Positions 4,002 to 24,791 of a stretch of 44,645 nucleotides of DNA are shown piece by piece. A model generated the notes under the pieces. The model worked only from the letters and a program-made list of their open reading frames with translations, did no database searches and was not told the origin of the DNA. The position numbers were made by a program, and so were the translations under genes. How positions within the stretch are numbered: the first letter of the stretch is position 1; every line of letters begins with the position of its first letter. The stretch lies in contig CAYFXP010000190.1 in assembly GCA_964346935.1 (NCBI GenBank), positions 1 to 44,645 of the forward strand, written 5' to 3'. The stretch is from an uncultured Syntrophobacterales bacterium (GTDB lineage: Bacteria; Desulfobacterota; BSN033; WVXP01; G020346125).

Positions 4002-4010
4002 GAGGAAAAG

Positions 4011-6383: not shown

Positions 6384-6600
6384 ACAGGCTGTTGCCCATA
6401 TCCCTGGAGCGAACAATAAAGAATTTTTGGTAACCATTCTTAGTCAAGCGAAACGGTCGCAAATCCAGTTATCTGAGCCCATAGGGCGCGGTATGGGAAC
6501 GAAGTAGCGCCGAACAGGCGCTCTTTGCAGTGAAGCGAACATTAGAATGGTCAAAAATTATTTTCGGTGAGCGGAATGGGTTTTGGGCAACAGCCCCTTG
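6384..6600. repeat. MITE-like palindromic element with two imperfect inverted arms
   Basis: The left arm (plus strand) starts GGCTGTTGCCCATATCC...GAATTTTTGGTAACCATTCTTAG. The right arm (reverse complement from 6596) starts GGCTGTTGCCCAAAACC...AATAATTTTTGACCATTCTAATG. The interior contains GCCC-TATG-GGC and GGGCTCAGATAACTGGATTTGCGACCGTTTCGCTT, both shared with 33290-33335. Confidence 0.6.
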
Positions 6601-7616
6601 ACCCCCCAGTTATGTGATTGGATGATTTCGCCATCGGGGGTGACGACTAAGGCTTCAACTCCATCCATCGCTTCGATAAGATGCAATCCCTTCTCGGGAC
6701 CCATCACAAAGACGGCAGTGGCGAGCGCGTCGGCGCTGAGGGCGTCCTTGGCAAGGATGGTCACGCTCCGACACTGGCGGGCTGGAAACCCCGTAAAAGG
6801 ATTGAGCAGGTGGTGATATCGTATCCCATCCACCTCGAAATAGCGCTCGTAATCCCCGGAGGTCGCGATGGAAATTTCCGAGGCTTCAAAGGTGGCCAGG
6901 ATTCGAGAACGGTCTCTCGGATCCTGAATTCCGATGATCCAAGGGCCATTTGGCTTCCTTCCCCCCACTCGCATGTCTCCCCCGGCATTGATGATCATAT
7001 TCCCGTATCCCCTTGCCCTGAGCACCTCGTAGGCGCGATCCACGGCGTACCCCTTGGCAATTCCGCCCAGGTCGATCCGCATCCCCTTGCTCTCAAACTG
7101 AACGGTTGTGGCCTGCTCATCTACAACGACTGCCCCATATCCTACTGACCGGAGCGATTTTTCCACCTCAGCTTTAGCGGGAACACGGCTTCCGCTGTCC
7201 TCAAACCCCCATAGGTCCAAAAGGACCCCGATGGATATATCAAAATACCCCCCCGATGCCCTCGAGATCTCCTTCGCCTTTCCAATCACCTTCAGCACCT
7301 CACGCGAAACCTTTACCGGTTTGACCCCCGTCCATCCGTTAATCCTCGAGACATCGCTTGTGGGAATTCTCCTGCTCATCAAATTCTCTATCCGCTCCAT
7401 TTCGGCAAAGGCGCCGTCGATAGCCGCTGCGGCCCTATCCTCATCCCTCCCAATGACGGAGATTTCCACTAGTGTCCCCATCAAAATTCGGTGCCTCTTG
7501 ACGATGCGGGGGGATCGCCGCTGACAGGACGGGAGAAGGAGGGATAGGATCGCGAGGATAAGAATCGCCCTGAATCGAATGGACTCGATGAACATCGATT
7601 TCATCCCCCAATCCAA
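6558..7616 (-). CDS. apbE: FAD:protein FMN transferase (ApbE family), probable lipoprotein
   Basis: ApbE-like core (RILMGTLVEISV..., DLGGIAKGYAVDRA, ATSGDYERYF..HHLLNP) and a lipobox-like LLLPSC near the N-terminus. The last ~14 codons lie inside the repeat at 6384-6600. Confidence 0.88.
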   Translation of the reverse strand: MDWGMKSMFIESIRFRAILILAILSLLLPSCQRRSPRIVKRHRILMGTLVEISVIGRDEDRAAAAIDGAFAEMERIENLMSRRIPTSDVSRINGWTGVKPVKVSREVLKVIGKAKEISRASGGYFDISIGVLLDLWGFEDSGSRVPAKAEVEKSLRSVGYGAVVVDEQATTVQFESKGMRIDLGGIAKGYAVDRAYEVLRARGYGNMIINAGGDMRVGGRKPNGPWIIGIQDPRDRSRILATFEASEISIATSGDYERYFEVDGIRYHHLLNPFTGFPARQCRSVTILAKDALSADALATAVFVMGPEKGLHLIEAMDGVEALVVTPDGEIIQSHNWGVKGLLPKTHSAHRK

Positions 7617-7640: not shown

Positions 7641-8087
7641 TTACGGACCCTTGGCCAGGACGATCTTACCCTGGGCCACCACGGTTTCGTTTACCTTTGC
7701 CTCCACCTTCACCATGGCCAAGGACTCGAAGACGCGAAGGACTTCTGCATGAAGCCGTAGCTGATCACCCGGCGAGACGGCCGATCGAAAGCTCATGTCC
7801 TCGATCTTGGCCAGTATGGGCAACCGAAAGCCCCCTGCCTCGTCGGGGTTCTCCTCACCAGAGGCGAAGGCCAGCCCACCTGTTTGGGCCAAGGCCTCGG
7901 CAATGAGCACACCGGGCATGACCGGAATACCGGGGAAATGGCCCCGAAAGAAGGGCTCATCAATAGTCACATTCTTTATGGCCGTGGCCGCCTTGCCAGG
8001 CTCGAGGTGAACCAGCCGATCGATCATCAAGAAGGGATACCGATGGGGTAGATGCCTCATGATTTCATCGATGTTCATGGCTGGCAT
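7641..8087 (-). CDS. fabZ: 3-hydroxyacyl-ACP dehydratase FabZ
   Basis: [34 protein letters not shown] (catalytic His and Glu contexts). Start taken at ATG 8087 (MPAMNIDEI) after GAGAAAGGA. The 221-aa track ORF adds a non-homologous extension that overlaps the upstream gene. Confidence 0.9.
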
Positions 8088-8095
8088 TCCTTTCT

Positions 8096-8572
8096 CTAAA
8101 AAACGGAAATAATTTGAAGGACCCCGGTGGTTAATCCGAAGACGATGAGTATCCCCAGGACGGATCCGGTCATCAGCAGCAACGTCCCGTGCAGGCGCCG
8201 CTTCCCGATGAGAAAGCAAAAAACCGATCCCGAATGGATGCCGAAGCCCTTGATGGGGAGGGCGGAGATGAGGACTATCCCCAAGTTCCCCAGTGAGGTA
8301 ATCCATCGGATTAGGCGTTTCTCCCGCATACGCTCCTGCATTCGTTCCACCTGTTTCCGAGCCCAGCGAAAGGGAAATTTCTCGGAAAACCGCTCAAGGA
8401 GATACCCGTAAATGGGTATCTGCACGTAATCATAACCCAGCGCCAGGGGAATGTAGTAGTGTAGGGGCAGATGATTGATAATGGCGTATACCATGGACAC
8501 CGTGCGCCCGCAGGCGAAATGCAGGGCGGTAAAGATCAATAGGTGATTAGTAGGGGAAAAGAGGTCTTCCAC
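8096..8572 (-). CDS. Hypothetical polytopic membrane protein
   Basis: About four hydrophobic helices. The GTG start overlaps the stop of the upstream KS-like gene by 1 nt (TAGTG). It faintly resembles small multidrug-export-like (COG2426-type) proteins, from memory only. Confidence 0.6.
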   Translation of the reverse strand: MEDLFSPTNHLLIFTALHFACGRTVSMVYAIINHLPLHYYIPLALGYDYVQIPIYGYLLERFSEKFPFRWARKQVERMQERMREKRLIRWITSLGNLGIVLISALPIKGFGIHSGSVFCFLIGKRRLHGTLLLMTGSVLGILIVFGLTTGVLQIISVF

Positions 8573-9780
8573 TATTTACCCATGAGGATGGAGGCGAAGG
8601 TTCCATCGGGTGAGAGGGCGTTGTGAAGGATGGTCTTAACCTCACTATCGACGGAGCTATTGACCACGTAACTGAGGTCACACCGGGGATCGGGGGTTTT
8701 ATAGTGAATGGTTGGGGGTATGAATCCCTCCTCAAAAATGATGGCATTTGCCGCCATTCTTATCCCACCCGAGGCGATGGACTCCCCAACCATGGACTTG
8801 ATGGAGCTTATGGGAAGGGCGCCATAATCCGATGGGAACGCCCCTTTGATCGCCTTTGCCTCTATCTCGTCCACCTTTTTCGAAGAATTACCCACCCCCG
8901 AAATATAGTCAACCTTCCTCTCCTCGTCCGTGCCTTCTATGGCTAGTCGAATGCTGCGCTCCATATCCCTCCATGGGGAAGCGGCATCGAACCCGCCCAC
9001 GAAGGAATAGCCCAAGATCCGCCCATAGGGCTCGACGCCCCTGGAAAGGGCACTTCCCTCCCTCTCCAAGACGAGGATGGCTGCCCCTTCCCCGAGAACG
9101 ATTCCATTTCGGTTCAGGTCATAAGGGCAGCTCATCTCCCCATCCCCACGATCATATGACAGGAGATTAATGGCGGAAAAGCCCCTGAAGAGGATTTCGC
9201 TCAGCTCATCCACGCCTCCCGTCAATATGGCCTTCGCCCTCCCCTCTGCCAGCAGATCGCAGGCCATGATTATGGCGGCCTCGGCCGTGCAATAGGATTG
9301 GACCACCGTTGAATTTACACCCCTGATCCCGAGCTCTATGGAGACATTCCCGGTGGCCGCGTTGGGAACGGTATTGGGGAAGAGGATGGGATTCAATTCC
9401 AGAAATCCCCCCAGTACTTGTTCCCTATGGAAGGCCTCCGAATTGGCAAGCCCGCAGAAACCGGAACCCAGGATGATCCCAACCTCACAGCTATTGGAGT
9501 CGGTAATGGTCAATTTGGCATCCCCCAAGGCCAACTTCGACGCCGCAATGGCCAGCTGACTCGCCCGGTCCAGTTTCCTGATCTTGGAGACTGGGATGAA
9601 TTCCCGGGCATTGAACCCCTTGACCATACCCCCCTTCTTCGCCTTAAAGAGACCGGTGTCGAATTCGGAGATCTCGGAAATGCCATCCGCGCCGTCCCGC
9701 AGACCCCGGCAGAACTGGGTCTTTCCAATTCCGATGGAGCTTACAACGCCGATGCCCGTTATGACGATTCCCTCATTCAT
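8572..9780 (-). CDS. Beta-ketoacyl synthase-like protein lacking both catalytic His residues (CLF-like partner)
   Basis: Thiolase-fold KS throughout. Cys is retained (VVQSYCTAEAAI), but the HGTGT position reads YISGVGNSS and the KSMxGH position reads SIKSMVGES. Confidence 0.85.
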   Translation of the reverse strand: MNEGIVITGIGVVSSIGIGKTQFCRGLRDGADGISEISEFDTGLFKAKKGGMVKGFNAREFIPVSKIRKLDRASQLAIAASKLALGDAKLTITDSNSCEVGIILGSGFCGLANSEAFHREQVLGGFLELNPILFPNTVPNAATGNVSIELGIRGVNSTVVQSYCTAEAAIIMACDLLAEGRAKAILTGGVDELSEILFRGFSAINLLSYDRGDGEMSCPYDLNRNGIVLGEGAAILVLEREGSALSRGVEPYGRILGYSFVGGFDAASPWRDMERSIRLAIEGTDEERKVDYISGVGNSSKKVDEIEAKAIKGAFPSDYGALPISSIKSMVGESIASGGIRMAANAIIFEEGFIPPTIHYKTPDPRCDLSYVVNSSVDSEVKTILHNALSPDGTFASILMGK

Positions 9781-10987
9781 ACTTTTTCAGCACGATGGTG
9801 GTGCAATTTCCCCCGAAGGCAAAGGAATTGGACAAGACGGTTCCCACCCCTTGCCTTCTCGATCGATGGGGAACGTAGTCCAAGTCGCACGCCTCATCCC
9901 TTTCGCCATAGGTAGCCGTGGGTGGGACAAACCCATGGATTATCGAAAGGACCGAGGCCACAGCTTCAATGGCTCCTGCCGATCCCAGGCAGTGCCCCAC
10001 CATGGACTTGATGGAGCTGACGGGAACGGAATAGGCCCTCTCCCCCAACGCGTCCTTGATGGCCATTGTCTCGACTTTGTCGTTGAGCGGCGTCCCCGTT
10101 CCGTGGGCGTTGATGTAGTCCACCTCACCGCGGGCAATGTTGGCCGCGTTCATGGCCTCCCCCATCGTCCTGGATTGTTCCCTGCCGCTTGCCTCCGGCG
10201 CGGTCATATGGTAGGCCTCTCCAACGGTGGAATAGCCCAGGAATTCCGCGTAGATAGTTGCCCCCCTCGCTCTAGCACGCTTCAATTCCTCCAGAACCAA
10301 AATCGCCGCCCCCTCTCCCAGGGTCATTCCCCTTCTTCTCGCATCAAAGGGCTTGCAGGGAGTCGGATCCACCACTCGGAGGGAATTGAAGCCCCCGAAG
10401 GTTAGTTCGCTCATGGCATCGCTTCCGCCACAGATCATGATCTCCACATGTCCCCTCTTGATAAGGTCTGCGCCGTATCCGATGGATGTGGCGGAGGAAC
10501 TGCAGGCCGTCGTGATAGTGGCCTTCGGTCCACAGAGGCAAAACCGTTGTGATACAGCATCAGTGGAATAACTGGGGAGGAAGGGAAGAATCAGCGAGGG
10601 ACGAGGTTTTCCCCTCCCCTTGAGAAGGAGGTCACGATGGTACTGCTCAGCCGAAAGCATGCCGCCTGCGCCCGCACCGAGACATACTCCGATTTCCCGG
10701 TGGGGCTTCCCGTTCATATCGATTCCGGCATCTTTGACGGCCTCCATCGAGGCGATGAGGGCAAACTGGTCTGTCCGGGAGAGCCTTCTCAATTCGGTAG
10801 GGCCGAAATAATCCAGGGGGTCGTAATCCCTGATCTGGGCCGCAATCTTGGAGGGGTACTTGGAGGCGTCGAACAGGGTCACCTCGCCGATGCCCACCCT
10901 GCCCTCCTCGAGGGAACGGTGGAACTGGGAGATGTTCTTCCCGATGGCGGTAATCGCCCCCAACCCGGTGATCACAACCCTTTTCAT
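9773..10987 (-). CDS. Beta-ketoacyl-ACP synthase II-type condensing enzyme (intact Cys-His-His)
   Basis: TTACSSSATSIG (Cys), YINAHGTGTPLND (His), SIKSMVGHCLGSAG (His). Start taken at ATG 10987 (MKRVVITGLG), 13 nt after the fabG stop and preceded by GAGGGGA. The track start at 11017 is also possible. Confidence 0.9.
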   Translation of the reverse strand: MKRVVITGLGAITAIGKNISQFHRSLEEGRVGIGEVTLFDASKYPSKIAAQIRDYDPLDYFGPTELRRLSRTDQFALIASMEAVKDAGIDMNGKPHREIGVCLGAGAGGMLSAEQYHRDLLLKGRGKPRPSLILPFLPSYSTDAVSQRFCLCGPKATITTACSSSATSIGYGADLIKRGHVEIMICGGSDAMSELTFGGFNSLRVVDPTPCKPFDARRRGMTLGEGAAILVLEELKRARARGATIYAEFLGYSTVGEAYHMTAPEASGREQSRTMGEAMNAANIARGEVDYINAHGTGTPLNDKVETMAIKDALGERAYSVPVSSIKSMVGHCLGSAGAIEAVASVLSIIHGFVPPTATYGERDEACDLDYVPHRSRRQGVGTVLSNSFAFGGNCTTIVLKKYE

Positions 10988-11000
10988 TCCCCTCGGCTGA

Positions 11001-11741
11001 TTAGACAATTCCCCCATCCACGACTACCGTCTGGCCGGTGATGTAGTCGGATCCCTCCGAGGCCAGAAACAGCACGGCATGGGCGACCTCCTCGGGTCGA
11101 CCGATGCGCCCCAAGGCGGTTTGCCTGATGATGGCCTCGACCTTCTCCTTTGGGACCCTCGCCAACCAGTCCGTTTCGATAACCCCCGGCGCCACCGCAT
11201 TGACCTGGATGTTGAATTGACCCAACTCTCTGGCCAGGGATTTGGTGAAGCTTATCAAGCCTCCTTTAGAAGCGGCATAGTTGACCTGACCAGCCGTGCC
11301 CAAGATGCCGCTGACCGATGCGATATTGATGATCTTGCCCTTCCGCTGGGGAATCATCTTTCGCAGGGCGGCGCGACAGCAATAGAAGGTGCTGGTCAGA
11401 TTCGCCTTCAGGACGCGCTCCCAATCCTCATCGGACATCAACATGAGAAGGTTATCCCTCATCATGCCCACGTTGTTGACGAGGATGTCGATCCTGCCAT
11501 AGCGGCCCGCGACATCCTCCATCATAGCGCTGACTTGGTGAAAATCAGTCACATCGGCTTGGTATGGATCGAGCGTGCCCCCGAGGGATTCGGCCTCCTC
11601 GGATAGCTCCTGGGCCGCCCGTTCGTCGGAGGCATAATTGGCGATAACGAAAGCTCCCATCTCGCAGAAAGCTAAACCAATGGCCTTCCCTATTCCCTTC
11701 GAGCCACCGGTTACTATGGCTATTCGGCCATCGAACTCCAT
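11001..11741 (-). CDS. fabG: 3-oxoacyl-ACP reductase (SDR family)
   Basis: [11 protein letters not shown] cofactor motif, the NNVG segment and the YAASKGG catalytic motif. Length 246 aa. Confidence 0.9.
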
Positions 11742-11745
11742 AACA

Positions 11746-13146
11746 TTACTCCCCGGCGAGAGGCCTCACCCTTGGCCTCTTCATTCTCGCGACCAAGTTC
11801 CAAAGAGGGCCCCTGATGTGAAACCGGCGGATTTGGTCCATCAATTTCTGGGAAATGTTAATCTCTAATCCCGGCACAATCCACCCCTTCCTCTCCAAGG
11901 CCTTTTGGGAGACCCAAGACAGGATTTCATCCCCCAATTGGGGGGAGACGTAAAAATGGGGATACATGAGGTTGGTGTCGCGACCGATGATCCCCTCCGA
12001 CAGGGATATCCTCTCCAGCTCCGTTCCAGGGTATATCCGAATTCCCACCATGACGATGACTGCCGTTGGCTTGACTTGGTCCATCAAGGAGGCGGTCTCC
12101 CCCAAGGTCTTCTCGTCCTCCCCGGGCCCACCTAAGAGGAGGTAGTGGGCAAAGGGAACCTCGACCATCCTGCATATCTCAGAGGCCCGAGAAATATCCC
12201 CCAGGGAGAAGGATTTCCCAAGCCTCCTCAACATGGCGGGAGACCCTGAATCGGTGCCGAACTCGACTCCCGTACAGCCCGCCTCTTTCATGGTTTCGAT
12301 CAGCTCCTCATCGACATACCCCGGATTGACAAAGGCGCTCCATTTCAACCCGATGCCCTGATCCGCCATGGATCGGCAGAGCCCAAGGGCATAATCCCGT
12401 GGAAAGTTAAAGATATCATCCACGAAGTAGACGTAATCGACATCGTGGAGTTCCTCCAGAGCCCGGAGCTCCTGGACGACCTCCTCCGGGGGCCTCGTGC
12501 GCACGGAGGACCCCTCCAGCAGCGGGTAGGTGCAGTAGATGCACCCGAAGGGGCATCCCCTTTTGGTCTGAATGTTCCCCATCCCTCCATGGCGCAGATA
12601 TCGTGCGTTGTCCAAGAGGTCCCGATACGGAAACCCAATGGATTCGACTCCATCGATGGCCGGAACCGATTCGGGAAGATCCTCCCGTACCATCAGTCCG
12701 GGGATCCCCTTCACCGAGATTCGCTTTTCCAAGCGCCGAACAAGGGAGAGCATGGGATTCTCACCCTCTCCCACAATCCCAAAATCGACATTCAGCACCT
12801 CCAAGAGCTCCCTTGGGGCCAACGAGAACCCAGAGCCCCCAATGATCACCTTGGCCCCCGAATATTTCCTGCAGAGCGCGATCACCTCCTCCGCTTCTGG
12901 AACATATGAGAGGGCAGTTGGATAGGTCAAATTGTCCAGGTTTCTCAACGAAAGTCCGATCAGGTCAGGCCTCCACCGCGATATCTGATCTTTTAGCTCC
13001 TCCTCCACGTCGTCACTGAAACAGAGGTCCACGATTCTCAACTGATGCCCTTCCTCCTTGAGCCCGGAAGCGATATAGGCCAATCCCAAGGGGAAGACCG
13101 GAAAGGGCATTCTCTCCCTGTTTACCGATAGCAAGAGAATCTTCAT
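11746..13146 (-). CDS. B12-binding-domain radical SAM protein (lipid-cluster type)
   Basis: N-terminal MKILLLSVN...[12 protein letters not shown]...DLIGLSLRN...VIIGGSGFS, and radical SAM motif [18 protein letters not shown] overlap with the next gene at 13143-13146. Confidence 0.9.
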
Positions 13147-14468
13147 GATGGATCCGCGTCAAACCGGCGATACCTAAGCCTGTTGACGATCTCCATTTGA
13201 GCCTTCCTCAGGGCGAAATTGCTCATCAAGAAGTAGAGGAAGTGGTTCCTGTTGCCCCCCAGGAGCCTTCCAAAGATAGAGCGAGGGGAACAGCAGTACT
13301 TCTGAGCCCATAGGTATCCCTGCTGGAGTTCTTCCGGGCTCATCAGCTTTGGCTTGAATACCACATGGCTCATATCGTAGTGAGGCCAATGGTTATCGAA
13401 GATTCGCCCCTCCTCCTCGAGCCTCCTCCTCAGAGGCGTCCCGGGAAAGGGCGTGAGCACGAAGAAGTTAGGGAGCTCAATATGGGTCTCATGAACGAAA
13501 TCGACGGTCCTCCTAAACACGTCCTTGTCATCGTGATCGAATCCAAAAATAAAGGAACCCTGAATCCCTATCCCGTGGTCCTGGATTTGTTTGATGAGGT
13601 CAGCCAGCTCTCGGGTGTCCACAAAGGTCTTTCTCGCCCCATCCAAGTTCTCCTGATTGAGGGATTCGAACCCGATAAAGAGGGAGATGCACCCGCTTTC
13701 CCTGGCCAGGGCGAGCAGCTCCGGATTGCGGGCGATTTTGAGAGTACAAAATCCCATCCACTTGGGCTCATATTTCTTGAGGATGCGGAAGAGTTCGGCC
13801 GCGAATTTCGGCTGGGCAATGACGTTATCGTCGGTCAGCATGAGATATTCTCCCCCTCTCCGGATGAGGGAGGAGAGTTCGGAATCGATGTGGGAGATAG
13901 ACCTGGTCCGATATCGCATCCCGTTGATCATGGGGACGGAGCAAAACTCGCACCGATTGGGGCAACCCCTCGTCGTCTCAATAGCATTGAAGAAGCGGCT
14001 ATACCTGGAGCCCAGCAATTCCCTCCTCGGGAGGGGCATTTTTCTCAAATCGAAATAGTTTTCGGTCCGATAAAATGGCTTTAGGCAGCCTGCTTCATAG
14101 TCGGAGATGAGCTCCTGGAAGATTCCCTCCGCCTCGCCAATCAGGACGGCATCTGCATGGGCTTTTGCCTCTTGAGGCAAAAAACTCGCATGTACCCCCC
14201 CGATGACCACCGTTTTCCCCCTCGTGCGAAATTCATCCGCTAGGAAGTGAGTCCGATCCGCAACACACGTCAAAGAGGTGAGTCCCACCAAATCCACATC
14301 CGCTTTCAGATCCACCTTCTCGATGGCTTCGTTTACAATGGTAATATCCCAATCCTTGGGAAAGAGGGAGGCCAATACCGTGAGACCGAGCATGGGGAAG
14401 GGGCGGCACGTATCCGTGGACACCCTCTTTCCCCTTTCCCTCGGAAAGATGAGCAGAGCTCGCTTCAC
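13143..14468 (-). CDS. B12-binding-domain radical SAM protein (paralogue of 558..1904)
   Basis: TRGCPNRCEFCSVP. GTG start preceded by AAGGAGGT. GTGA overlap with the upstream gene. The C-terminal YLWAQKYCCSPRS is shared with the 558..1904 protein (FLWTKKYCCAPRS). Confidence 0.9.
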   Translation of the reverse strand: MKRALLIFPRERGKRVSTDTCRPFPMLGLTVLASLFPKDWDITIVNEAIEKVDLKADVDLVGLTSLTCVADRTHFLADEFRTRGKTVVIGGVHASFLPQEAKAHADAVLIGEAEGIFQELISDYEAGCLKPFYRTENYFDLRKMPLPRRELLGSRYSRFFNAIETTRGCPNRCEFCSVPMINGMRYRTRSISHIDSELSSLIRRGGEYLMLTDDNVIAQPKFAAELFRILKKYEPKWMGFCTLKIARNPELLALARESGCISLFIGFESLNQENLDGARKTFVDTRELADLIKQIQDHGIGIQGSFIFGFDHDDKDVFRRTVDFVHETHIELPNFFVLTPFPGTPLRRRLEEEGRIFDNHWPHYDMSHVVFKPKLMSPEELQQGYLWAQKYCCSPRSIFGRLLGGNRNHFLYFLMSNFALRKAQMEIVNRLRYRRFDADPS

Positions 14469-15868
14469 GTTACCTCCTTCAGAAATTCATCATACTCCTG
14501 AAAGTTCGGCTGTCTCCACTGCCTCCTGGTAGCGTTCTCCCATACGTACCTCATGATGAGCCGATACGCCATCCGCTTAAAGGGATTGCGGCTCAGCAGG
14601 GGCCCTAGCAATATCCGGGGCTGAGTATAGTACTTCTTGAGGTACGTCTTCTGGAGAGATTCCACTTCTTCTGCTGAAAGGCAATGAGTCGGCATAACAG
14701 GATGCATGAAATCATATTTACCGAGGTCAAACTCAACGATTCTCCCCGCCTTCATGGCCTCCTCATAGTAAGGAGTTCCCGGTAGTGGAGTTGTCATGGT
14801 CAATATGAGAAAATCGCTCTGCTTCTTCACGAACTGGAAGATCTCTCGTAATGTCTCCTTGCTATCGAGCCAATCCACGAACATCACGTTGGCCATAACC
14901 ATGATCCCGTTTTCCCTCAGGATATTGATGGCCTCTTGGGCCATATCCCGGTCTTGCCTCTTGTCATATCGGTCCAGCACGGAGGAGGTCACGCTCTCGA
15001 CCCCCAACATCACCTCGTAGAGCCCCAGCCGCTTGAACTCGGACATGAGATCCCGATCCCTGATGATATCCCTCACCCGCGACTGAAACCAGAAGTGAAC
15101 CCCCAGGCCCGATTTCCCCAGTTCCTCCAAGAATTCCTCCACCCGTTTCCGACTCCAATTGAAGCTATTCTCGTTGAAGACGAAGAGCGTCTTTCCGTAC
15201 CGTCCGTTCAGATAAACCATTTCCTCAACAACCCTCCTGGCACTCCTCGCCCGCCAATACCCTTGCCAGAAGGCCGTCTCGGAACAGTATGCACAACAAT
15301 CACCACAGCCGCGGCTCGTCGAAATCCCAAAAGCCTCCCTTCCCATCCCATGCCAGTAGTAGGCATCGTTCTCCACGTCGATGAGGTGGTATGCGGGCAG
15401 GGGAAGGTCATCCAAATCCTGGATGAGGGGCCTCATTCGGTTCATCACCACCTCCCCGTCATTCGAAAAGGCCAAGCCCCTGATCCCTTTCACCCCCTCC
15501 CAATCACCCTCGGCGACCTGGGAGACGAATTCAGCCATTGATCCCTCGCCCTCCCCCAACAGGACGTAGTCGAGCTCCGGCACATCTTTAAGGATGGACC
15601 TGGCTAAAAGGGTGAAATGGCTCCCGCCCGCCACGATCACGGATCGTCGCGAGAGCCGTTTGGCCAGGGCAATGGTCTGAAAGGCCTCGGGCGAAAGGCA
15701 GGTCGCACTCGCCGTGACCCCGATGATATCGGGCTGGGCCCCCGAAATCCTCCTCGCCAAATCGGACCAGGGCCTATCGAAGGTTGTGCAGTCGAGGATT
15801 TGGCAGGAAAATCCCGCCTTTTCCAGGTATGCCCCCAGGCTCAAAAGGCCGAAGGAGGGGGTCCACAT
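14465..15868 (-). CDS. B12-binding-domain radical SAM protein (N-terminus probably extends to ~15931)
   Basis: SRGCGDCCAYCSE. Coordinates use the first ATG. The in-frame upstream codons (KGKPTIFLVDPPHRLFPGLR) still align with the N-terminus of the 18512..19879 paralogue, yet contain no ATG, GTG or TTG. Confidence 0.85.
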   Translation of the reverse strand: MWTPSFGLLSLGAYLEKAGFSCQILDCTTFDRPWSDLARRISGAQPDIIGVTASATCLSPEAFQTIALAKRLSRRSVIVAGGSHFTLLARSILKDVPELDYVLLGEGEGSMAEFVSQVAEGDWEGVKGIRGLAFSNDGEVVMNRMRPLIQDLDDLPLPAYHLIDVENDAYYWHGMGREAFGISTSRGCGDCCAYCSETAFWQGYWRARSARRVVEEMVYLNGRYGKTLFVFNENSFNWSRKRVEEFLEELGKSGLGVHFWFQSRVRDIIRDRDLMSEFKRLGLYEVMLGVESVTSSVLDRYDKRQDRDMAQEAINILRENGIMVMANVMFVDWLDSKETLREIFQFVKKQSDFLILTMTTPLPGTPYYEEAMKAGRIVEFDLGKYDFMHPVMPTHCLSAEEVESLQKTYLKKYYTQPRILLGPLLSRNPFKRMAYRLIMRYVWENATRRQWRQPNFQEYDEFLKEVT

Positions 15869-15927
15869 CCTCAGCCCCGGAAAGAGCCGATGCGGGGGAT
15901 CGACCAGAAATATCGTCGGCTTGCCCT

Positions 15928-16356
15928 TTATCGTTCCACCTCCAAGTATTCCATCATCCTGCCGATCCTCTTCTGGATCGGCTCGGGAATTCGATACAAG
16001 AGGGTCCCCTTGGAATCAGTCAGCACGTGAACCGTACGCCCCGTGGCCAGGACCCTGTTTGTCTCCGCGTGCAGCACCTCATAGGTGAAGATGAGGTTGG
16101 CCAATTCCGATGGTTGCATCCCCGTCCGGATGAGCAATTCATCGTTGGGCCTTGCGGGTTCCTTGAATTGACAGTGGACCTCGACCACCGGGGCGAGAAA
16201 GCCGGCATCCTTGAGGGTCAGCGGATCCAGTTCAAATTGAAGGGCGAGCTCATTGCGGCTCACCTCGAACCAATTAATGTAGTGGCCATGCCAGACCACT
16301 TCATAGAGATCAACCTCGGTAAAACGGACCTTAAGGCGCGTCTCGTGAAATCTCAT
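15928..16356 (-). CDS. Hotdog-fold acyl thioesterase (YbgC/4HBT-like)
   Basis: VRFTEVDLYEVVWHGHYINWFEVSRNE matches the catalytic-Asp N-terminal signature of YbgC-type thioesterases. Length 142 aa. Confidence 0.8.
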   Translation of the reverse strand: MRFHETRLKVRFTEVDLYEVVWHGHYINWFEVSRNELALQFELDPLTLKDAGFLAPVVEVHCQFKEPARPNDELLIRTGMQPSELANLIFTYEVLHAETNRVLATGRTVHVLTDSKGTLLYRIPEPIQKRIGRMMEYLEVER

Positions 16357-17287
16357 TCGGTCCTAACTTCCCCATGGAGCTGGAATCTCCCGTTGCCGTG
16401 GCTTTAACTCCCCTGTCGATCCATCGGATCAATTTACAGAGGGTGGCATCGTATCCCACCTCGATAAACCAGGCCACTCCTCGACGGAGGAGCTCCCTGA
16501 CACATCCCTCCCAATAAACTGGCCTGCATATCTCATCGGCCAAGAAAGGCTTGATGTCCCCCTTTTCCAGAAACGATAGCGTCATGTGATTGAGTATTCG
16601 GAACTTGGGTTCCCTGATATCGATGTGGTCCACCAGCTCCTGGATTTCAGCCCGAACGGGTTCCATAAGGTCACAGTGAAGAGGGGCGGAAAACGTCAGC
16701 CGGTGGGCGGCAATGGCGCCCAAATCGAGGGCCAAGGGGATGAGCTTGTCAATCCCTCCATTCAATCCGGAAAGGACGAAATTTCTCGATCCGTTGTAGT
16801 TGGCGATGGAGATTCGATACCCATCCAGCCGATCCCGAATGCCCTCGATTTGATCCATCTCCAAGCCGAGGACGAGGCACATGGATCCCCCTATCTCCCT
16901 TGCCCGTCCTTCTATGAGGAGGCCGATATCCCTCGTGAGGAGGAGCCCTTCTTGAAAATCGATGCTTTCCGCGGCCACCAAGGCCGCATAGATTCCCATG
17001 CTGTGCTCAGCGATGACATGGGGGAATATCCCCTCCCGCTGTAGACGATAATAATGGATGAGGCTGATGAGGTAGCTCGCCAGCTGAAGCTTGACGTTGA
17101 AATATGGCTCCCACTCCAGCTCCTGAATGGAGAAATTGAGGACGTCAAACCCACTGACCCGCTGGGTTTCCTCGTAAATCTCCTTGGCTAACCCCTCCCC
17201 GTAAATGGAATGATACGCGGGCAGGCGAGGACGTTCCTGGAGCTGCCCAGGAAAGCAGAAGCAGATTTTCTCCCCGCCTCGCTTCAT
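16331..17287 (-). CDS. FabD-like acyltransferase (malonyl-CoA:ACP transacylase fold)
   Basis: FCFPGQ (compare FPGQGSQ), the nucleophile elbow AEHSMGIYAAL (compare GHSLGEY), and FSAPLHCDLMEP (compare the PSHCALMKP His motif). Confidence 0.8.
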   Translation of the reverse strand: MKRGGEKICFCFPGQLQERPRLPAYHSIYGEGLAKEIYEETQRVSGFDVLNFSIQELEWEPYFNVKLQLASYLISLIHYYRLQREGIFPHVIAEHSMGIYAALVAAESIDFQEGLLLTRDIGLLIEGRAREIGGSMCLVLGLEMDQIEGIRDRLDGYRISIANYNGSRNFVLSGLNGGIDKLIPLALDLGAIAAHRLTFSAPLHCDLMEPVRAEIQELVDHIDIREPKFRILNHMTLSFLEKGDIKPFLADEICRPVYWEGCVRELLRRGVAWFIEVGYDATLCKLIRWIDRGVKATATGDSSSMGKLGPNEISRDAP

Positions 17288-17302: not shown

Positions 17303-17575
17303 TCAGCCATTATCGCGGTTTTCGACAACGTACTGGGCAATTGTTCCCACGGATTGAAAGACCTTCTGCCCCACTTCAGCATCGGGAATGATCACCCCAT
17401 ACTCCTTTTCCAGCCCCAGGACTAGCTCCAGGGCATCGATGGAATCCAAACCCAACCCCTCACCAAAAAGAGGATCGTCGGTCCCGATATCCTCGGGCGT
17501 GACCTCCTCCAGTTTAAGCCGCTCGATGATGAGCCTCTTGAGCTGAAGGATGAGCTCTTCCGTTACCGTGGTCAT
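17303..17575 (-). CDS. Acyl carrier protein
   Basis: 90 aa and acidic, with the phosphopantetheine site LGLDSIDALELVLGLE. Confidence 0.9.
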   Translation of the reverse strand: MTTVTEELILQLKRLIIERLKLEEVTPEDIGTDDPLFGEGLGLDSIDALELVLGLEKEYGVIIPDAEVGQKVFQSVGTIAQYVVENRDNG

Positions 17576-17598: not shown

Positions 17599-18555
17599 TC
17601 ATTCCCAATAAGAATAAAAGTTATACCATTGATCCGGGTATCGGCGAATGTAATCCTCGAAGACTCGGGTAATCTCCTGCATACCCTCCCGAATAACCCG
17701 CTCCCGTTTACCCCTTTCGCTCCCATCGAAGTAGATCGGCTTCTCGATGATTCCCCGATATTTCCAACCCTTCTCCATCACCACGAAGACGGGAAGAACC
17801 GGTGACCCGGCCATCATAGCCAGCATGGCAACGCCCATGGGAAACCGCGTCCTTCGGCCGAAGAAATCCACGTCGATGGTATTGGGGGAATCCTGCCGGT
17901 CGCCCAACATGGCGACGATCTCGTTATTCCTCAAGGCCTTGACCAGCTCTATGGTCGAAAAGGGATCCTCCCCTCCTCCCTTGATATAGAGTTCCCTGAT
18001 CCCCTTGGAATGCCTGAATCTCCCTCTGAAGGCCTTGGTCCTGGGGTCGGGTTCATCCAAGGACAGTACATTAAGGGTTCCCCCCCTGAAGGCCAGCAAC
18101 AGGCCCCCCATCTCCCAATTCCCCAGGTGCGGGGTAATGCAGATAGCCCCTTTTCCCTTCCTGAGTGCCTGGGCCATGTACTCCGCTCCGAGTTCTCCCT
18201 CTATCACCCTCCGCTTGTTGGAGGGGGTAATTTGATGTATCACCATGTAGTCCAACAGATATTGCCCATAGTTTCGAAAGGTCTTGCGGGCCAACCTGGA
18301 AATTTCTTGAGGGCTCAGTCGTCCTCGGCCGATTACCTCAAGGTTCCGTTTCACCGCCCGCCGGCTTCGCCTCATCAGCATATAGAAGATGTCGCCCACC
18401 GGAATGGCGACGAACTTCTGTACCGAACGAGGAATGAGGATCGAGCCCAAAAAGAACCCCAAGAGGTAAATGTATCTGTTCAAGGGACGGACGTTCTGTT
18501 CCCGCCTGGAATCACCCAATAAAGTACTCCTTGATAAAACGGAGAAGGGTTCCAA
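17599..18555 (-). CDS. LpxL/HtrB-family lysophospholipid/lipid A-type acyltransferase
   Basis: N-terminal membrane anchor and the family signature ITPHLGNWEMGG (HxGNWE). Length ~318 aa. Confidence 0.8.
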   Translation of the reverse strand: MEPFSVLSRSTLLGDSRREQNVRPLNRYIYLLGFFLGSILIPRSVQKFVAIPVGDIFYMLMRRSRRAVKRNLEVIGRGRLSPQEISRLARKTFRNYGQYLLDYMVIHQITPSNKRRVIEGELGAEYMAQALRKGKGAICITPHLGNWEMGGLLLAFRGGTLNVLSLDEPDPRTKAFRGRFRHSKGIRELYIKGGGEDPFSTIELVKALRNNEIVAMLGDRQDSPNTIDVDFFGRRTRFPMGVAMLAMMAGSPVLPVFVVMEKGWKYRGIIEKPIYFDGSERGKRERVIREGMQEITRVFEDYIRRYPDQWYNFYSYWE

Positions 18556-19879
18556 CCCCCAACCTGTGGCGTTTGATCAGTTGAAAGACATCTGTTCGTC
18601 CCTTTTTGGACCTCATATAATAGAGGAAATTGGCCTTCAGAAGCAACCACTGGAGACGGACGAAGGAGATATGATCGTGCTTAAACACCAGGTGCTGGGC
18701 ATCATAGAAGGTCCACGGCCTGCGGAACAAGCGGGCCTTCACCTTCTCATAGAGGGCGGTACCCGGGTAAGGCGTTAGAATGGAGAACTGCGCGACGTTG
18801 GTATCGAGCCGCTTGGCCCAATGGATGGTTTCGTTAACGGCCCCGGCCGTTTCCCCGAGTCCCCCCAAGATGTAGCTGGCGAAGATCTCAAATCCATTCC
18901 GCTTCAAAATCTCTACCGCTCGTTCGGCCATCCCGATATCGGACCTCTTCCCGAACTCCTCCAGGCTTTGCCGATGGGGGGTCTCAACTCCTATGTATAT
19001 GGTCTTGGCACCCGCTTTCCGCATCTTCCTGAGCATTGGCTCGTTCTTAACGATGGTATCGGCTCGGGAGAAATTCCACCACCAGATGTCAAGATTTCTC
19101 TGGATGATTCCTTCCGATAGCTCCATAATCCTTTGGGGGGAGAGGGTAAAATTATCATCCACAAATGCGATGGCATTAAAGCGATAACGCCGAACAAGCT
19201 CCTCGATCTCCTGGAGTACCGAGGACACGCTGCGGCTCCTCCACTTTCTGCCGAAGAAGGTGGAGGACGAACAAAAGGAGCAGTTGCTGGGACACCCTCG
19301 GCTGGTGATCACGGGCGTAATATCCCGATCCCCGAACTTGGTCTGCCGGTAATCGTTCATGTCGATGAGATGTCGAGCGGGCAAGGGGAGCTCGTCGAGG
19401 TCTTGGATGAACTCCCTCCGGGGTGTCCTCACGATATGACCATTCTGAGCAAAGCTGACCCCCTTAATGCGGGAAAACTCTCCCCTCTCCTTTTGCAATT
19501 CGACGAGGAGCTCGTGGAGGGTGACTTCCCCTTCCCCATGGACAACGAAATCCACACGGCCGGCCTTCAACACCTCCTCATCGACAAAACAGGGATGGGG
19601 GCCCCCCATGATAACGGTGCACCCTGCCCTTCGAGCCCTCTTGGCGATCTTGAGGGCATTGTAAAAGCGCGTTGTATCAGTGCCAATGCCCACCACGTCA
19701 TAATCTCGAAACCGGATATCCCCCTTCGAACCTCTGTGGATACACAGGTCCTTCACCTCTGGATGATGGCCCTCCCTCTCCAGATAGGCAGCCAGGGAGA
19801 GGAGCCCAAGCGGGGGAAAGTGGAGGCCTACGGCCTTCAGAATGCCGGTGTTGGGTGGGTTAATCAGCAACATTCTCAT
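18512..19879 (-). CDS. B12-binding-domain radical SAM protein
   Basis: MRMLLINPP...FPPLGLLSLAAYLEREG...DVVGIGT...VIMGGPHP, and SRGCPSNCSFCSS. Start taken at ATG 19879 after a G-rich RBS (the track starts at 19927). The 3' end overlaps the next gene by 44 nt. Confidence 0.9.
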   Translation of the reverse strand: MRMLLINPPNTGILKAVGLHFPPLGLLSLAAYLEREGHHPEVKDLCIHRGSKGDIRFRDYDVVGIGTDTTRFYNALKIAKRARRAGCTVIMGGPHPCFVDEEVLKAGRVDFVVHGEGEVTLHELLVELQKERGEFSRIKGVSFAQNGHIVRTPRREFIQDLDELPLPARHLIDMNDYRQTKFGDRDITPVITSRGCPSNCSFCSSSTFFGRKWRSRSVSSVLQEIEELVRRYRFNAIAFVDDNFTLSPQRIMELSEGIIQRNLDIWWWNFSRADTIVKNEPMLRKMRKAGAKTIYIGVETPHRQSLEEFGKRSDIGMAERAVEILKRNGFEIFASYILGGLGETAGAVNETIHWAKRLDTNVAQFSILTPYPGTALYEKVKARLFRRPWTFYDAQHLVFKHDHISFVRLQWLLLKANFLYYMRSKKGRTDVFQLIKRHRLGVGTLLRFIKEYFIG

Positions 19880-19933
19880 GCGGCCCCCCGTTTGTCGACC
19901 CACCATCGGCCTATGGGAAGCCCCCAAGCAGAA

Positions 19934-20926
19934 TCAGTCGGGTACCGACCGGATCGCGACTCGAGCCTCCTCCTGGGCGCCCTCAAAGGCATCGCTATGC
20001 TTTCCACAGGTATCCCCCCAGCAGGCCACGGCTTTCCCTTCGGCAATCAGTTCCATCACGTCACAGGTATTTCCACATCCATCGCATTCGAAGCTTCGGG
20101 TCGAAAAATTCCATTCGGCGACTTCTACTCCCTTGAAGCAAGTCTTGGAGGGCCTCACCCTTCTCACCAGCTTTGCGGCTCCGATAGCACCCATCAGGTC
20201 AAAGTGAGGCGGGACGATGACTTCCAACCCCAATTCCCTTTCCAAGGCCTGTCTGATTCCCCTGTTTGCGGCCACCCCGCCTTGGAAGACGACAGGGGGC
20301 AAGATCTCCTTACCCCTTGAAACGTTGTTCAGGTAGTTCTTGACCAGGGAATCGCATAACCCGGCGATGATATCCTCTATTTGATACCCCAGTTGCTGCT
20401 TGTGGATCATATCCGTTTCGGCAAAGACCGTACACCGCCCCGCAATGCGGACCCTATCCCGAGACCTTAAGGCCCAATCCCCGAAGTCCTCTATGGAAAT
20501 CCCAAGCCGGGAGGCCTGTTGGTCCAGAAAGGAACCCGTTCCCGCTGCGCAGACCGTGTTCATGGCGAAATCAACTACCACCTCCTCCCTCAGGATGATG
20601 ATCTTCGAGTCCTGCCCCCCGATTTCAATGATGGTCTTTGCATCGGGTACATAATCGACGACCGCCAAGGCGTGGGCCGTAATCTCATTCTTCACGACAT
20701 CGGCCCCAACCAGATAGGCCGCCAAGTGTCGAGCGCTTCCCGTGGTCCCAATCCCTTCTATGGAAAGGGGATTGCCCGCCTGACGAGTGATGCTCCGTAT
20801 TCCTTCCTGAATAGCGGCGATGGGCTTTCCCGCGTTTCTGAGGTAGGCATGGGCGATAACGCGATCTTCCCCATCGGTGAGGACAACCTTGGTCGTGATG
20901 GATCCCACATCGATTCCTAAATACAC
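19934..20926 (-). CDS. BcrAD/BadFG/HgdC-type ATPase (activase-like) with a C-terminal 4-Cys motif
   Basis: YLGIDVGSITTKVV (ASKHA phosphate-1). Cluster-ligand contexts NTVCAAGTGSFLDQQ and AGRCTVFAETDMIH. C-terminal FECDGCGNTC...CWGDTCGKH. GTG start after GAGGGGGAG. Confidence 0.88.
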   Translation of the reverse strand: MYLGIDVGSITTKVVLTDGEDRVIAHAYLRNAGKPIAAIQEGIRSITRQAGNPLSIEGIGTTGSARHLAAYLVGADVVKNEITAHALAVVDYVPDAKTIIEIGGQDSKIIILREEVVVDFAMNTVCAAGTGSFLDQQASRLGISIEDFGDWALRSRDRVRIAGRCTVFAETDMIHKQQLGYQIEDIIAGLCDSLVKNYLNNVSRGKEILPPVVFQGGVAANRGIRQALERELGLEVIVPPHFDLMGAIGAAKLVRRVRPSKTCFKGVEVAEWNFSTRSFECDGCGNTCDVMELIAEGKAVACWGDTCGKHSDAFEGAQEEARVAIRSVPD

Positions 20927-21930
20927 GTCTCCCCCTCAGACTGCAACGCTCTCGTCCTTCTCTGCGTACAGATGTCTACAAAGGCCTCCAATCTGGTGGC
21001 CAGGCCCTGGACGGTGGCATGCTCGTCCAGCGATAAGGTCAGGAAGGGAATGGTACTTTCTCCATGGGCCTTAAAAGCCCTCTTGAGATACTCCTGCAGG
21101 AGGGCATCGATACCGCATTTGAAGGAGCTTAAGAAGACCACGCCATCTATGTCGTTTCGCCTAAGGAAAATAAACGCAGCCCCAACAATTTCCCTCCCCG
21201 ATGACCAGTAGATCTCCTTGGATAGATTTGAGACCCTCCTATCGACCTCACCTCCGTCCAAGGAGTCGGCGATGGCGATCTGGCAGCCCAATTTCCTGAC
21301 CATCCCGAGGACATCTTTACTTACATCCGCATCATAGATATTGTAGGGATGACCGATGAGGGCGATATTGAGATCTCCAGACCAGGAGGTCGTCTCTGGT
21401 GTTGGTATCTCCAACGTGAAGATATCCCTAATGGGCAACCCGTTCACCCTCTTCGCCAAATCACCCTCGAATTCCCGCTGGGCAGAAAGAGCCGCGCGGG
21501 ACGCAGCACGGATCTGCCCTGGTTTCAACCCCAACCGCTCGCCTATGGCCTTAGAGAAGCCGCTCCATGGATCACTCCCCAACCGATAATCGAGGGAATC
21601 ATCAATGACTTCAGCTTGGTTCCCGGTGGCTAATTTAACGATATCAGGAACCCCCCTGAACTTTGGGCACATGATGTATTTGCGATGAATGCTGATTAGC
21701 CGCGGCACGAAGAGGAAGTCCACCTCCTTCGCAAGGTCAAGACAATGGGCGACCATCAACTTCATGGGGAAACAGCTATCCTCGAAATAACCGATGGCTT
21801 GTCTGCCGAGCAATCCCCTTCCCATCGGATCAGAGGTAACTACTTCACATCCCATTTCCCGGAAAAAGGCGGACCAAAGGGGAAAGAAGCGATAGTACAT
21901 GAGTCCCTTAGGGATGCCTACTCGTCTCAA
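20917..21930 (-). CDS. HgdA/B-like, DUF2229-type 'CoA enzyme activase-associated' protein (middle-domain type)
   Basis: VGIPKGLMYYRFFPLWSAFFREMGCEV and FLSSFKCGIDALL...LSLDEHATVQGLATRLEAFVD align by eye with residues ~680-990 of the 1407-aa protein. TTG start. Confidence 0.8.
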   Translation of the reverse strand: MRRVGIPKGLMYYRFFPLWSAFFREMGCEVVTSDPMGRGLLGRQAIGYFEDSCFPMKLMVAHCLDLAKEVDFLFVPRLISIHRKYIMCPKFRGVPDIVKLATGNQAEVIDDSLDYRLGSDPWSGFSKAIGERLGLKPGQIRAASRAALSAQREFEGDLAKRVNGLPIRDIFTLEIPTPETTSWSGDLNIALIGHPYNIYDADVSKDVLGMVRKLGCQIAIADSLDGGEVDRRVSNLSKEIYWSSGREIVGAAFIFLRRNDIDGVVFLSSFKCGIDALLQEYLKRAFKAHGESTIPFLTLSLDEHATVQGLATRLEAFVDICTQRRTRALQSEGETCI

Positions 21931-21967
21931 TGAAATCCTTGCCTCCCCTGATCCACCATCAAGGCAT

Positions 21968-24767: not shown

Positions 24768-24791
24768 TCGCTCCACCTTTTCCGCCGAGAT

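Follow-up and report, generated by a model that had tools for sequence, protein, structure and literature searches.

A tandem of three B12-binding radical SAM genes in a 'ladderane-like' lipid operon of an uncultured Syntrophobacterales bacterium

This study was concerned with three tandem genes, B12_1, B12_2 and B12_3, on a contig of an uncultured, anaerobic Syntrophobacterales bacterium of the Desulfobacterota (GenBank assembly GCA_964346935.1, contig CAYFXP010000190.1). The whole stretch of 44,645 nucleotides that was analyzed is called the window. By their domain profiles and pairwise identities, the trio are genuine, distinct and anciently diverged class-B-type (B12-binding) radical S-adenosylmethionine (SAM) genes, for which a recent duplication is excluded. 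The trio lies inside a dedicated block of genes of the fatty acid synthase (FAS) and polyketide synthase (PKS) kind, to which it is coupled in translation, and for this reason acyl- or lipid-directed radical tailoring is the most economical reading of its role. With near certainty, the operon is a Syntrophales-type variant of the TIGR04072 or 'ladderane-like' secondary-lipid cluster of Desulfobacterota. Clusters of this kind are already catalogued in NCBIfam, by antiSMASH (as 'ladderane') and in the literature since 2009 (PMC2649909), so the finding extends a known puzzle and opens no new one. Taken as a whole, the explanation that the trio tailors a special acyl chain in such an operon is in our judgement probable; the step assigned to each enzyme is one that we infer.

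The radical SAM trio and its junctions

The initial annotation, made from the DNA letters and a list of open reading frames (ORFs), had placed three B12-binding radical SAM genes here, and profile searches bore this out, with all three on the minus strand (Table 1). Pfam gathering cut-offs were 32.1 bits for the B12-binding domain (PF02310) and 29.5 bits for the radical SAM domain (PF04055). Against these, B12_1 scored 66.3 and 70.7 bits, B12_2 scored 36.6 and 69.3 bits, and B12_3, taken from its first canonical start (14465-15868), scored 66.6 and 52.4 bits. Two further copies had been noted in the window, one just upstream of an LpxL-like gene and one outside the gene train. Both were recovered by Pfam and NCBIfam as B12_4 and B12_5 (PF02310 63.0 and 53.4 bits), B12_4 with a full ORF longer than the version read from the ATG at 19879. 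Over all five paralogues the PF04055 scores ranged from 52 to 85 bits. An N-terminal Rossmann-type B12 domain precedes the radical SAM core, whose CxxxCxxC motif lies at residue 198 in B12_1, 169 in B12_2, 209 in B12_3 (extended ORF), 212 in B12_4 and 175 in B12_5. The motifs reported earlier for the trio match exactly in all three ORFs.

The mutual divergence claimed for the trio was also found. Pairwise identity within it is only 25-27%, and the C-terminal halves are unlike: DUF4070 (PF13282, 23.9 bits) is confined to the middle ORF, B12_2, and within the trio a BchE-like match extends to the C-terminal end of the third ORF, B12_3, only. Among the five paralogues B12_2 and B12_5 share 43% identity, and every other pair shares 24-31%.

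The two overlaps described earlier are present, namely ATGA at the B12_2/B12_1 junction (13146-13143) and GTGA at the B12_3/B12_2 junction (14468-14465), the latter with AGGAGG 6 nt upstream. The placement of the trio between fabG and the thioesterase (TE), acyltransferase and acyl carrier protein (ACP) genes stood as well, with FabG below it and the TE, FabD-like and ACP genes above. The whole train consists of 22 co-directional minus-strand genes running from 27867 to 6558 and is closed by a terminator-like hairpin at 6363-6346. All but two of its junctions have gaps of -44 to +24 nt; outside this range are the HAD_A/HAD_B junction, with +255 nt, and that of the unrevised FabZ ORF, with a nominal -211 nt. 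A scan of the window with Rfam found neither a cobalamin riboswitch nor any other RNA family.

The 5' end of B12_3 required separate attention. The initial annotation had let this ORF end at about 15931. This end is biologically sensible, but the first canonical start is the ATG at 15868, so a near-cognate start is needed to reach it. Homologues of B12_3 start with MKVLLIDPPH..., approximately 20 residues ahead of a conserved internal Met, and the corresponding stretch of the window (15869-15931, minus strand; IKGKPTIFLVDPPHRLFPGLR) forms 21 in-frame, open and conserved codons of the N-terminus. This stretch contains no ATG, GTG or TTG. The one codon in it that could serve as a start is the ATA at 15931-15929; this ATA overlaps with the stop of the TE gene (ATAA), and GGAGG lies 7 nt upstream of it. 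In a related locus that is 84% identical (L002), a GTG stands at the position of the ATA and gives a GTGA overlap. All differences between the two loci across IFLVDPPHRLFPGLR are synonymous, and the N-terminal stretch is thus evidently translated. Gene callers begin the close relatives of B12_3 at the internal Met or later, and the NCBI call for the window gene is 431 aa. With the ATA start, the TE/B12_3, B12_3/B12_2 and B12_2/B12_1 junctions would be three consecutive 4-nt overlaps.

Family membership and synteny

B12_1 is the only one of the five paralogues that reaches any curated NCBIfam cut-off. It matches the TIGR04072 equivalog ('lipid biosynthesis B12-binding/radical SAM protein') with 393.3 bits over residues 2-451 (cut-off 360), and B12_2, B12_3, B12_4 and B12_5 are non-members at 78, 88, 111 and 79 bits. 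More than 2900 homologues of B12_1 were found below 1e-20, and its relatives were found in no fewer than 563 species-representative genomes, mostly of Syntrophales and Geobacterales. For the analysis of synteny, all window proteins were mapped by tblastn onto the best 80 loci of B12_1 relatives. These loci come from Syntrophales-like metagenome-assembled genomes (57-85% identity), from Geobacterales (about 50%), including the cultured Oryzomonas japonica, Geobacter sp. AOG1, G. argillaceus and Geotalea sp., and from a few Holophagales and Thermoanaerobaculia. Upstream gene order was scored in the 71 loci with enough upstream sequence and the FabG position downstream in 70 loci.

The order TE-B12_3-B12_2-B12_1 of the window, followed by FabG, recurs in 14 of the 71 loci with 60-85% protein identity. 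Because these are 14 other species-level genomes, the arrangement of the trio is not due to chance. The most frequent arrangement (47 loci) is the Geobacter layout, PSdeAc-GT2-SPASM-[B12_4]-LpxL-ACP-DUF4070-type radical SAM-FabD-TE-B12_1-FabG-KS-CLF-FabZ, in which PSdeAc is the polysaccharide deacetylase, KS the ketosynthase and CLF its chain-length-factor-like partner. Three loci have the order small membrane protein-B12_2-B12_1, and three, all from Acidobacteriota, have the pair of DUF4070-type enzyme and B12_1 alone. None of these arrangements was found upstream of B12_1 in the other four loci, two of which have FabG downstream and two of which have too short a downstream flank. FabG lies directly downstream of B12_1 in 53 of the 70 loci, and ACP, FabD, TE and KS are present in most loci. 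B12_4 is optional across related loci, and orthologues of B12_5 (66-68% identity) directly adjoin cluster genes in L006, L009 and L013.

The Geobacter-type clusters, for example those of Oryzomonas japonica (L025), Geobacter sp. AOG1 (L053) and G. argillaceus (L060), belong to the same family as the window operon, with 30-60% identity throughout. However, they lack both B12_3 and the HAD/activase set, and their DUF4070-type enzyme lies between ACP and FabD and not beside B12_1, so that there is no tandem trio. The isolated Acidobacteriota pairs of DUF4070-type and TIGR04072 radical SAM genes (L070 8633-11422, L072 5462-8230 and L077 5339-8110, from Thermoanaerobaculia and Holophagales) have no FAS, ACP, glycosyltransferase or deacetylase genes near them. 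The upstream neighbor of the L070 pair is a Ser/Thr kinase.

The third member of the trio follows a different set of genes. B12_3 and the DUF2229/activase genes occur together in 10 loci, B12_3 occurs alone in one, the DUF2229/activase genes occur alone in none and neither occurs in 47, a distribution that is confounded with phylogeny (the loci listed for the split HAD set or B12_3 are L004, L005, L007, L008, L012, L014, L018, L019, L021, L062 and L063). This suggests that B12_3 and the split HAD set are a co-inherited accessory module. Judged from the synteny patterns across these loci, the trio is therefore modular, with a conserved core pair of TIGR04072 and DUF4070 type and a lineage-specific BchE-like accessory that travels with a reductase module. 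The initial annotation had proposed that several ordered modifications act on one acyl or lipid substrate. Tailoring of an acyl chain or lipid remains the best reading, but a single ordered series is not supported, the trio splitting into modules across loci.

Many B12_3 homologues (P0255-P0370) are annotated by JGI as 'anaerobic magnesium-protoporphyrin IX monomethyl ester cyclase', that is, BchE. This naming is probably a systematic over-annotation, because the window protein, at 240 bits, falls short of the BchE cut-off of 481, and its gene is part of a lipid operon. The same names bear on the alternative that the trio are misplaced homologues from unrelated pathways, either BchE or radical SAM methylases that mature peptides made on the ribosome and modified after translation (RiPPs). 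BchE is the top NCBIfam match of B12_2, B12_3 and B12_4, and models for ApyD and for RiPP C-methyltransferases match weakly. All of these fall well short of the cut-offs, however: TIGR02026 (BchE) gives 239.9 bits for B12_3, 210.6 for B12_4, 88.9 for B12_2 and 75.6 for B12_1, and ApyD gives 124-174 against 750. The window contains neither chlorophyll genes nor a candidate precursor peptide, as the one unassigned interval of the train (21931-22185) has nothing but arginine-rich, unconserved ORFs of 27-54 aa, and synteny with FAS genes is kept across many genomes. An origin in such pathways is accordingly very improbable. BchE orthology of the trio was rejected on its scores and the absence of a bacteriochlorophyll context, and a RiPP role was rejected for want of a precursor-peptide gene; the initial annotation had named both as findings that would speak against its reading.

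Proposed role of the trio and comparison with known systems

Clusters of FAS genes with radical SAM genes were described by Rattray et al. in 2009 in Kuenenia stuttgartiensis, with similar clusters in Desulfotalea psychrophila, Geobacter and Pelobacter (PMC2649909). In Kuenenia kuste3335-3352, FabG (3341) lies beside the radical SAM genes 3342 and 3343, with extra ACPs, a non-canonical FabF and deacetylase-like and glycosyltransferase genes, and there are also phytoene-desaturase-like (kuste3336/3607), methyltransferase (3338/3347) and phenylacetyl-CoA-ligase genes (PMC4790861). The window operon has in common with the Kuenenia, Desulfotalea (DP1853/DP1855), Geobacter and Pelobacter clusters the order FabG-radical SAM-radical SAM, an extra ACP, a KS with a dead KS, a deacetylase-like gene and a glycosyltransferase; for Kuenenia and Desulfotalea this is a likeness to the published gene lists. 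The phytoene-desaturase-like, SAM methyltransferase and phenylacetyl-CoA ligase genes of those two have no match among the 22 train genes. The window adds to them a tandem BchE-like third radical SAM gene, a fourth before the LpxL-like gene, a SPASM enzyme and the split PlsA-like set.

This shared gene content could be taken to indicate biosynthesis of true ladderanes (concatenated cyclobutanes), since FabG-radical SAM-radical SAM, KS with an inactive KS, deacetylase and glycosyltransferase are also found in kuste3335-3352 (PMC4790861, PMC2649909) and B12_1 passes the TIGR04072 model, named rSAM_ladder_B12. However, ladderanes are known only from Planctomycetota that oxidize ammonium anaerobically (anammox), and none were found in Desulfotalea. 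The nearest loci to the window are from Thermodesulfobacteriota, Syntrophobacterales, Syntrophaceae and Geobacter, and the window contains a class III cytochrome c gene. In addition, the family is spread over at least 563 species genomes, and the cluster regarded as anammox-exclusive is kuste3603-3608, which is different from kuste3335-3352. Heterologous expression of the Kuenenia cluster gave no products (PMC4790861), and antiSMASH 'ladderane' gene clusters in Desulfobacterota and other phyla are reported to be expressed, with function unknown (PMC9902471). Ladderane synthesis proper was rejected on taxonomy, distribution and missing genes, and we give it almost no weight.

A second comparison was made by BLASTP of the window proteins against the aryl polyene (APE) cluster of E. 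coli CFT073 (NC_004431.1, 1143727-1158748). Identities were 47% for ACP and ApeE, 30% for TE and ApeK, 34% for FabG and ApeQ and 31% for KS_a and ApeR/ApeO, and the family 2 glycosyltransferase (GT2) and LpxL-like proteins share 27% and 25% with the N- and C-terminal parts, respectively, of the 558-aa ApeJ. In both clusters the KS is accompanied by an inactive partner, and an enoyl reductase gene is missing. No window protein matched ApeH (the enzyme that adenylates the aryl starter), ApeL or ApeM at E <= 1e-3, and a LolA-like protein and an MMPL exporter are missing from the window operon. ApeC, ApeD, ApeI and ApeP had no BLAST match, FabZ and CLF included. APE clusters have no radical SAM enzymes. 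On these alignments, the window operon shares a homologous chassis with APE clusters, in which a chain is built on a dedicated ACP with no enoyl reductase and handed to a glyco/lipid anchor, and on gene content the radical SAM enzymes stand in place of the APE aryl-starter chemistry. ApeJ (L081 41212-42888) is annotated only as GT2 and aligns with both the GT2 and the LpxL-like protein of the window. It thus seems to be a GT2 fused to an acyltransferase, and a joint action of the two window proteins is probable.

For the chemistry of B12_1, the best characterized NCBIfam relatives are all methyltransferases (BzaD 224, TsrM 151 and PhpK 136 bits), and the closest sequence match in the Protein Data Bank is TsrM (6wte, E 1.7e-36). 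Foldseek matched TsrM best and also AprD4, MgmA, OxsB and TokK, a ranking from a low-confidence model that repeats the sequence result. The low-confidence AlphaFold2 models of B12_1 and B12_2 have a plausible five-strand beta/alpha N-domain. An invariant Arg68 of B12_1 aligns with TsrM Arg69, which sits under the corrin, a position that a 2026 review ties to enzymes without radical methylation. At the position of TsrM Glu236, B12_1 has Tyr207, which resembles the hydrophobic or aromatic residue of radical methylases. B12_1 is thus probably a cobalamin-dependent methyl-transfer enzyme, the two residues pointing to different mechanisms. B12_2, B12_3 and B12_4 had only generic class B matches (AprD4, QCMT, CysS, OxsB and TokK). 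One of the close structural matches, AprD4, belongs to the family but makes no use of cobalamin. The known class B enzymes TsrM, BzaD, PhpK, BchE, HpnR, HpnJ, TokK, OxsB and QCMT/MgmA have the same order of B12 domain and CxxxCxxC core as the paralogues, but their substrates are not fatty-acyl chains.

The role that we favor is as follows. The dedicated ACP would carry a special, probably unsaturated, acyl chain while it is built; profile matches revealed no enoyl reductase among the 22 train genes. The B12-radical SAM enzymes would then tailor unactivated or sp2 carbons of this chain by methylation, cyclization or desaturation. B12_1 would most likely act as a cobalamin-dependent C-methyltransferase with the DUF4070-type B12_2 as its partner, and B12_3 may perform a further methylation, cyclization or desaturation linked to the split PlsA-like reductase. 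The GT2 and the deacetylase would make a sugar- or lipid-linked acceptor, to which the LpxL-like enzyme would transfer the chain, or the chain may end in ether lipids. The product would be a specialized membrane or envelope lipid and not a ladderane.

Several points weigh against this role. First, a housekeeping FabI could act in trans, and the argument from a missing enoyl reductase to an unsaturated chain is weak. Secondly, the Arg of B12_1 at the TsrM Arg69 position makes its chemistry uncertain, and the AlphaFold2 models of B12_1 and B12_2 are poor (predicted local distance difference test scores of 61 and 51), with shallow alignments. Third, the conserved N-terminus of B12_3 has no canonical start codon. 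Fourth, the Acidobacteriota pair without FAS genes means that the pair may act on ordinary lipids and not on a dedicated ACP-bound chain. Lastly, 2026 reviews still list the 'ladderane' B12-radical SAM enzyme as uncharacterized, and no product, substrate or activity is known for the cluster family.

The radical SAM enzymes could instead modify the head group, with an amino sugar from the GT2 and deacetylase being rearranged or methylated, on the pattern of HpnI (GT2), HpnK (deacetylase) and HpnJ (B12-type radical SAM) of hopanoid biosynthesis. The GT2 and polysaccharide deacetylase are conserved in the cluster, and B12_4 (174.9 bits), B12_5 (90.5) and B12_2 (87.9) have HpnJ as one of their better matches in NCBIfam. 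These scores are far under the HpnJ cut-off of 577, however, and the trio belongs to the half of the operon that holds the FAS genes, with the TE and FabG genes on either side and away from the GT2 and deacetylase, neither of which is a neighbor of the Acidobacteriota pair. Head-group chemistry is unlikely on this evidence. Another proposal, made by Rattray et al. for Desulfotalea, is an anaerobic desaturation pathway to polyunsaturated fatty acids or hydrocarbons in which the radical SAM enzymes are oxygen-independent desaturases. In D. psychrophila, which has a syntenic cluster, they found polyunsaturated hydrocarbons and no ladderanes (PMC2649909), the B12-radical SAM lipid desaturase Ted is a precedent (bioRxiv 10.1101/2025.10.20.683597), and the cluster has no enoyl reductase. 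The link of the Desulfotalea cluster to the hydrocarbons of D. psychrophila was never demonstrated, though; the window has no phytoene-desaturase-like gene, unlike the Kuenenia and Desulfotalea clusters (PMC4790861), and the nearest characterized relatives of B12_1 are methyltransferases. We regard such a desaturation pathway as quite unlikely.

Archaeal enzymes offer a wider comparison. Paralogous B12-radical SAM enzymes of archaea cyclize, methylate and desaturate inert lipid tails (bioRxiv 10.1101/2025.10.20.683597), a precedent for the action of several distinct paralogues on a single lipid. The GrsA/B ring synthases, the methylases of glycerol dialkyl and monoalkyl glycerol tetraethers (GDGTs and GMGTs) and the Ted desaturase are like the window paralogues in concept, as paralogues that each make a different change to inert membrane-lipid tails. 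Unlike the window genes, those encoding these archaeal enzymes lie outside FAS operons, and the enzymes act on assembled isoprenoid tetraethers. The 1407-aa fused protein encoded divergently from the operon shares the Act1-Act2-Red1-Red2 layout of the single-gene plasmalogen synthase PlsA (PMC12838417) and of the Ger ester-to-ether reductase of Thermotoga and Desulfatibacillum (PMC13159169), a likeness of layout. It contains two BcrAD_BadFG domains, DUF2229 and a C-terminal Red2-like region, and the activase, HAD_B and HAD_A proteins are collinear with its successive segments at 46-48%, 29% and 24% identity. The in-cluster set is split over three genes with a single activase domain, unlike fused PlsA and Ger. 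The extra radical SAM paralogues and the PlsA-like reductases point to a richer, possibly ether-linked, tailored lipid. That the five B12-radical SAM proteins and two PlsA/Ger-like reductases are a bacterial counterpart of the archaeal GDGT-tailoring toolkit, an anaerobic pathway for methylation, cyclization or desaturation at unactivated mid-chain carbons of fatty-acyl or alkyl-ether lipids, is a proposal in which we place little confidence.

Were that counterpart real, the TIGR04072 and DUF4070-type pair would provide the first demonstrated case of radical SAM enzymes working on ketoacyl-derived lipid tails, and would be candidates for mid-chain methylations that lack an explanation, such as those of 10-methyl fatty acids or the C5/C6 methyls of branched tetraethers, and for the first committed step in common with ladderane producers. 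If the orthology to PlsA and Ger is true, the locus joins radical tail-tailoring with ether-bond-forming enzymes. Such lipids would be relevant to the membrane physiology of syntrophs and are potential sedimentary biomarkers. A radical SAM enzyme with a fatty-acid-derived (ketoacyl) lipid tail as its substrate is yet to be characterized, and according to a 2026 review the ladderanes, along with the Jaw5 product, are the sole ketoacyl-derived lipids even proposed to be modified by radical SAM enzymes. In the literature we found no paper characterizing the non-anammox cluster, and nothing on TIGR04072, on G. sulfurreducens GSU0455-0463 or on cobalamin radical SAM enzymes in connection with ACPs or with fatty acids of sulfate reducers. 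B12_1 represents the core enzyme of the family in a very widespread Desulfobacterota lipid operon that is also carried by cultivable Geobacter relatives, which could open the family to genetics outside the intractable anammox bacteria.

Other genes of the operon and the window

The positions of the genes and the matches on which their names rest are collected in Table 1.

Table 1. Genes of the operon and related genes of the window, in the order of the minus-strand train, with genes outside it at the end.
Gene product	Position	Strand	Basis
Acylphosphatase	27571-27867	minus	Profile matches
ATP-grasp protein	26302-27567	minus	Profile matches
Polysaccharide-deacetylase/DUF3473 protein	25463-26305	minus	Profile matches
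GT2	24792-25466	minus	Profile matches; ApeJ N-terminal part
Radical SAM/SPASM protein	23376-24776	minus	Pfam, NCBIfam
HAD_A, DUF2229/HGD-D protein	22186-23379	minus	Split PlsA/HAD-like set
HAD_B, DUF2229/HGD-D protein	20917-21930	minus	Split PlsA/HAD-like set
BcrAD_BadFG activase	19934-20926	minus	Split PlsA/HAD-like set
B12_4, BchE/HpnJ/ApyD-like B12-binding/radical SAM protein, below all cut-offs	18512-19927	minus	Pfam, NCBIfam
LpxL/PIM-acyltransferase-like acyltransferase	17599-18555	minus	PF03279 115.6 bits; NCBIfam matches
Dedicated ACP, PRK09184 type, not AcpP	17303-17575	minus	NF006617 78.7 (cut-off 70); TIGR00517 45 (cut-off 70.45)
Divergent FabD-like acyltransferase	16331-17287	minus	TIGR00128 149.7 bits (cut-off 260.9)
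YbgC/4HBT-type thioesterase (TE)	15928-16356	minus	TIGR00051 61.5 bits
B12_3, BchE-like (not BchE) B12-binding/radical SAM protein	14465-15931	minus	Pfam; 467 aa from canonical ATG 15868
B12_2, B12-binding/radical SAM protein with C-terminal DUF4070, paralogue of B12_5	13143-14468	minus	Pfam; 441 aa
B12_1, B12-binding/radical SAM protein, TIGR04072 family (rSAM_ladder_B12)	11746-13146	minus	NCBIfam, Pfam; 466 aa
FabG-type ketoreductase	11001-11741	minus	NF009466 256 (cut-off 222)
KS_a, active FabF-type ketosynthase	9773-11017	minus	NF005589 426.7 (cut-off 387); Cys/His/His triad present
KS_b, chain-length-factor-like inactive KS partner	8572-9780	minus	Cys/His/His replaced by Tyr/Val/Glu, aligned to KS_a
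Small membrane protein (PF06695)	8096-8572	minus	Kept beside KS_b in L006, L009, L013
FabZ dehydratase	7641-8078 (likely start ATG 8078)	minus	TIGR01750 161.9 (cut-off 155)
ApbE-like FAD:protein FMN transferase, final gene of the train	6558-7616	minus	Profile match
Fused BCR/HAD-family protein, Act1-Act2-Red1-Red2 layout, 1407 aa	28345-32568	plus, divergent from operon	Two BcrAD_BadFG and DUF2229
B12_5, DUF4070-type B12-binding/radical SAM protein	537-1904	plus	Pfam, NCBIfam

The interval between HAD_A and HAD_B (21931-22185, 255 nt) is the only sizeable non-coding gap in the train and contains only short arginine-rich ORFs. It may hold an internal promoter or reflect a mis-called start of HAD_B. 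The SPASM enzyme was considered as a relative of GDGT-MAS, but the match was only marginal (E 0.003 over 75 residues) and was discarded as evidence.

The ApbE-like protein that ends the train has a hydrophobic, lipoprotein-like N-terminal leader, and the operon has no gene for an obvious target of flavinylation. Between the B12_5 gene and the operon lies an adjacent pair of genes on the plus strand (3480-5837), which encode two conserved but uncharacterized proteins, one of TIGR03546 (173 aa, DUF2062) and one of TIGR03545 (608 aa). This pair is followed by the class III cytochrome c gene, of tetrahaem type, at 5914-6288 on the minus strand.

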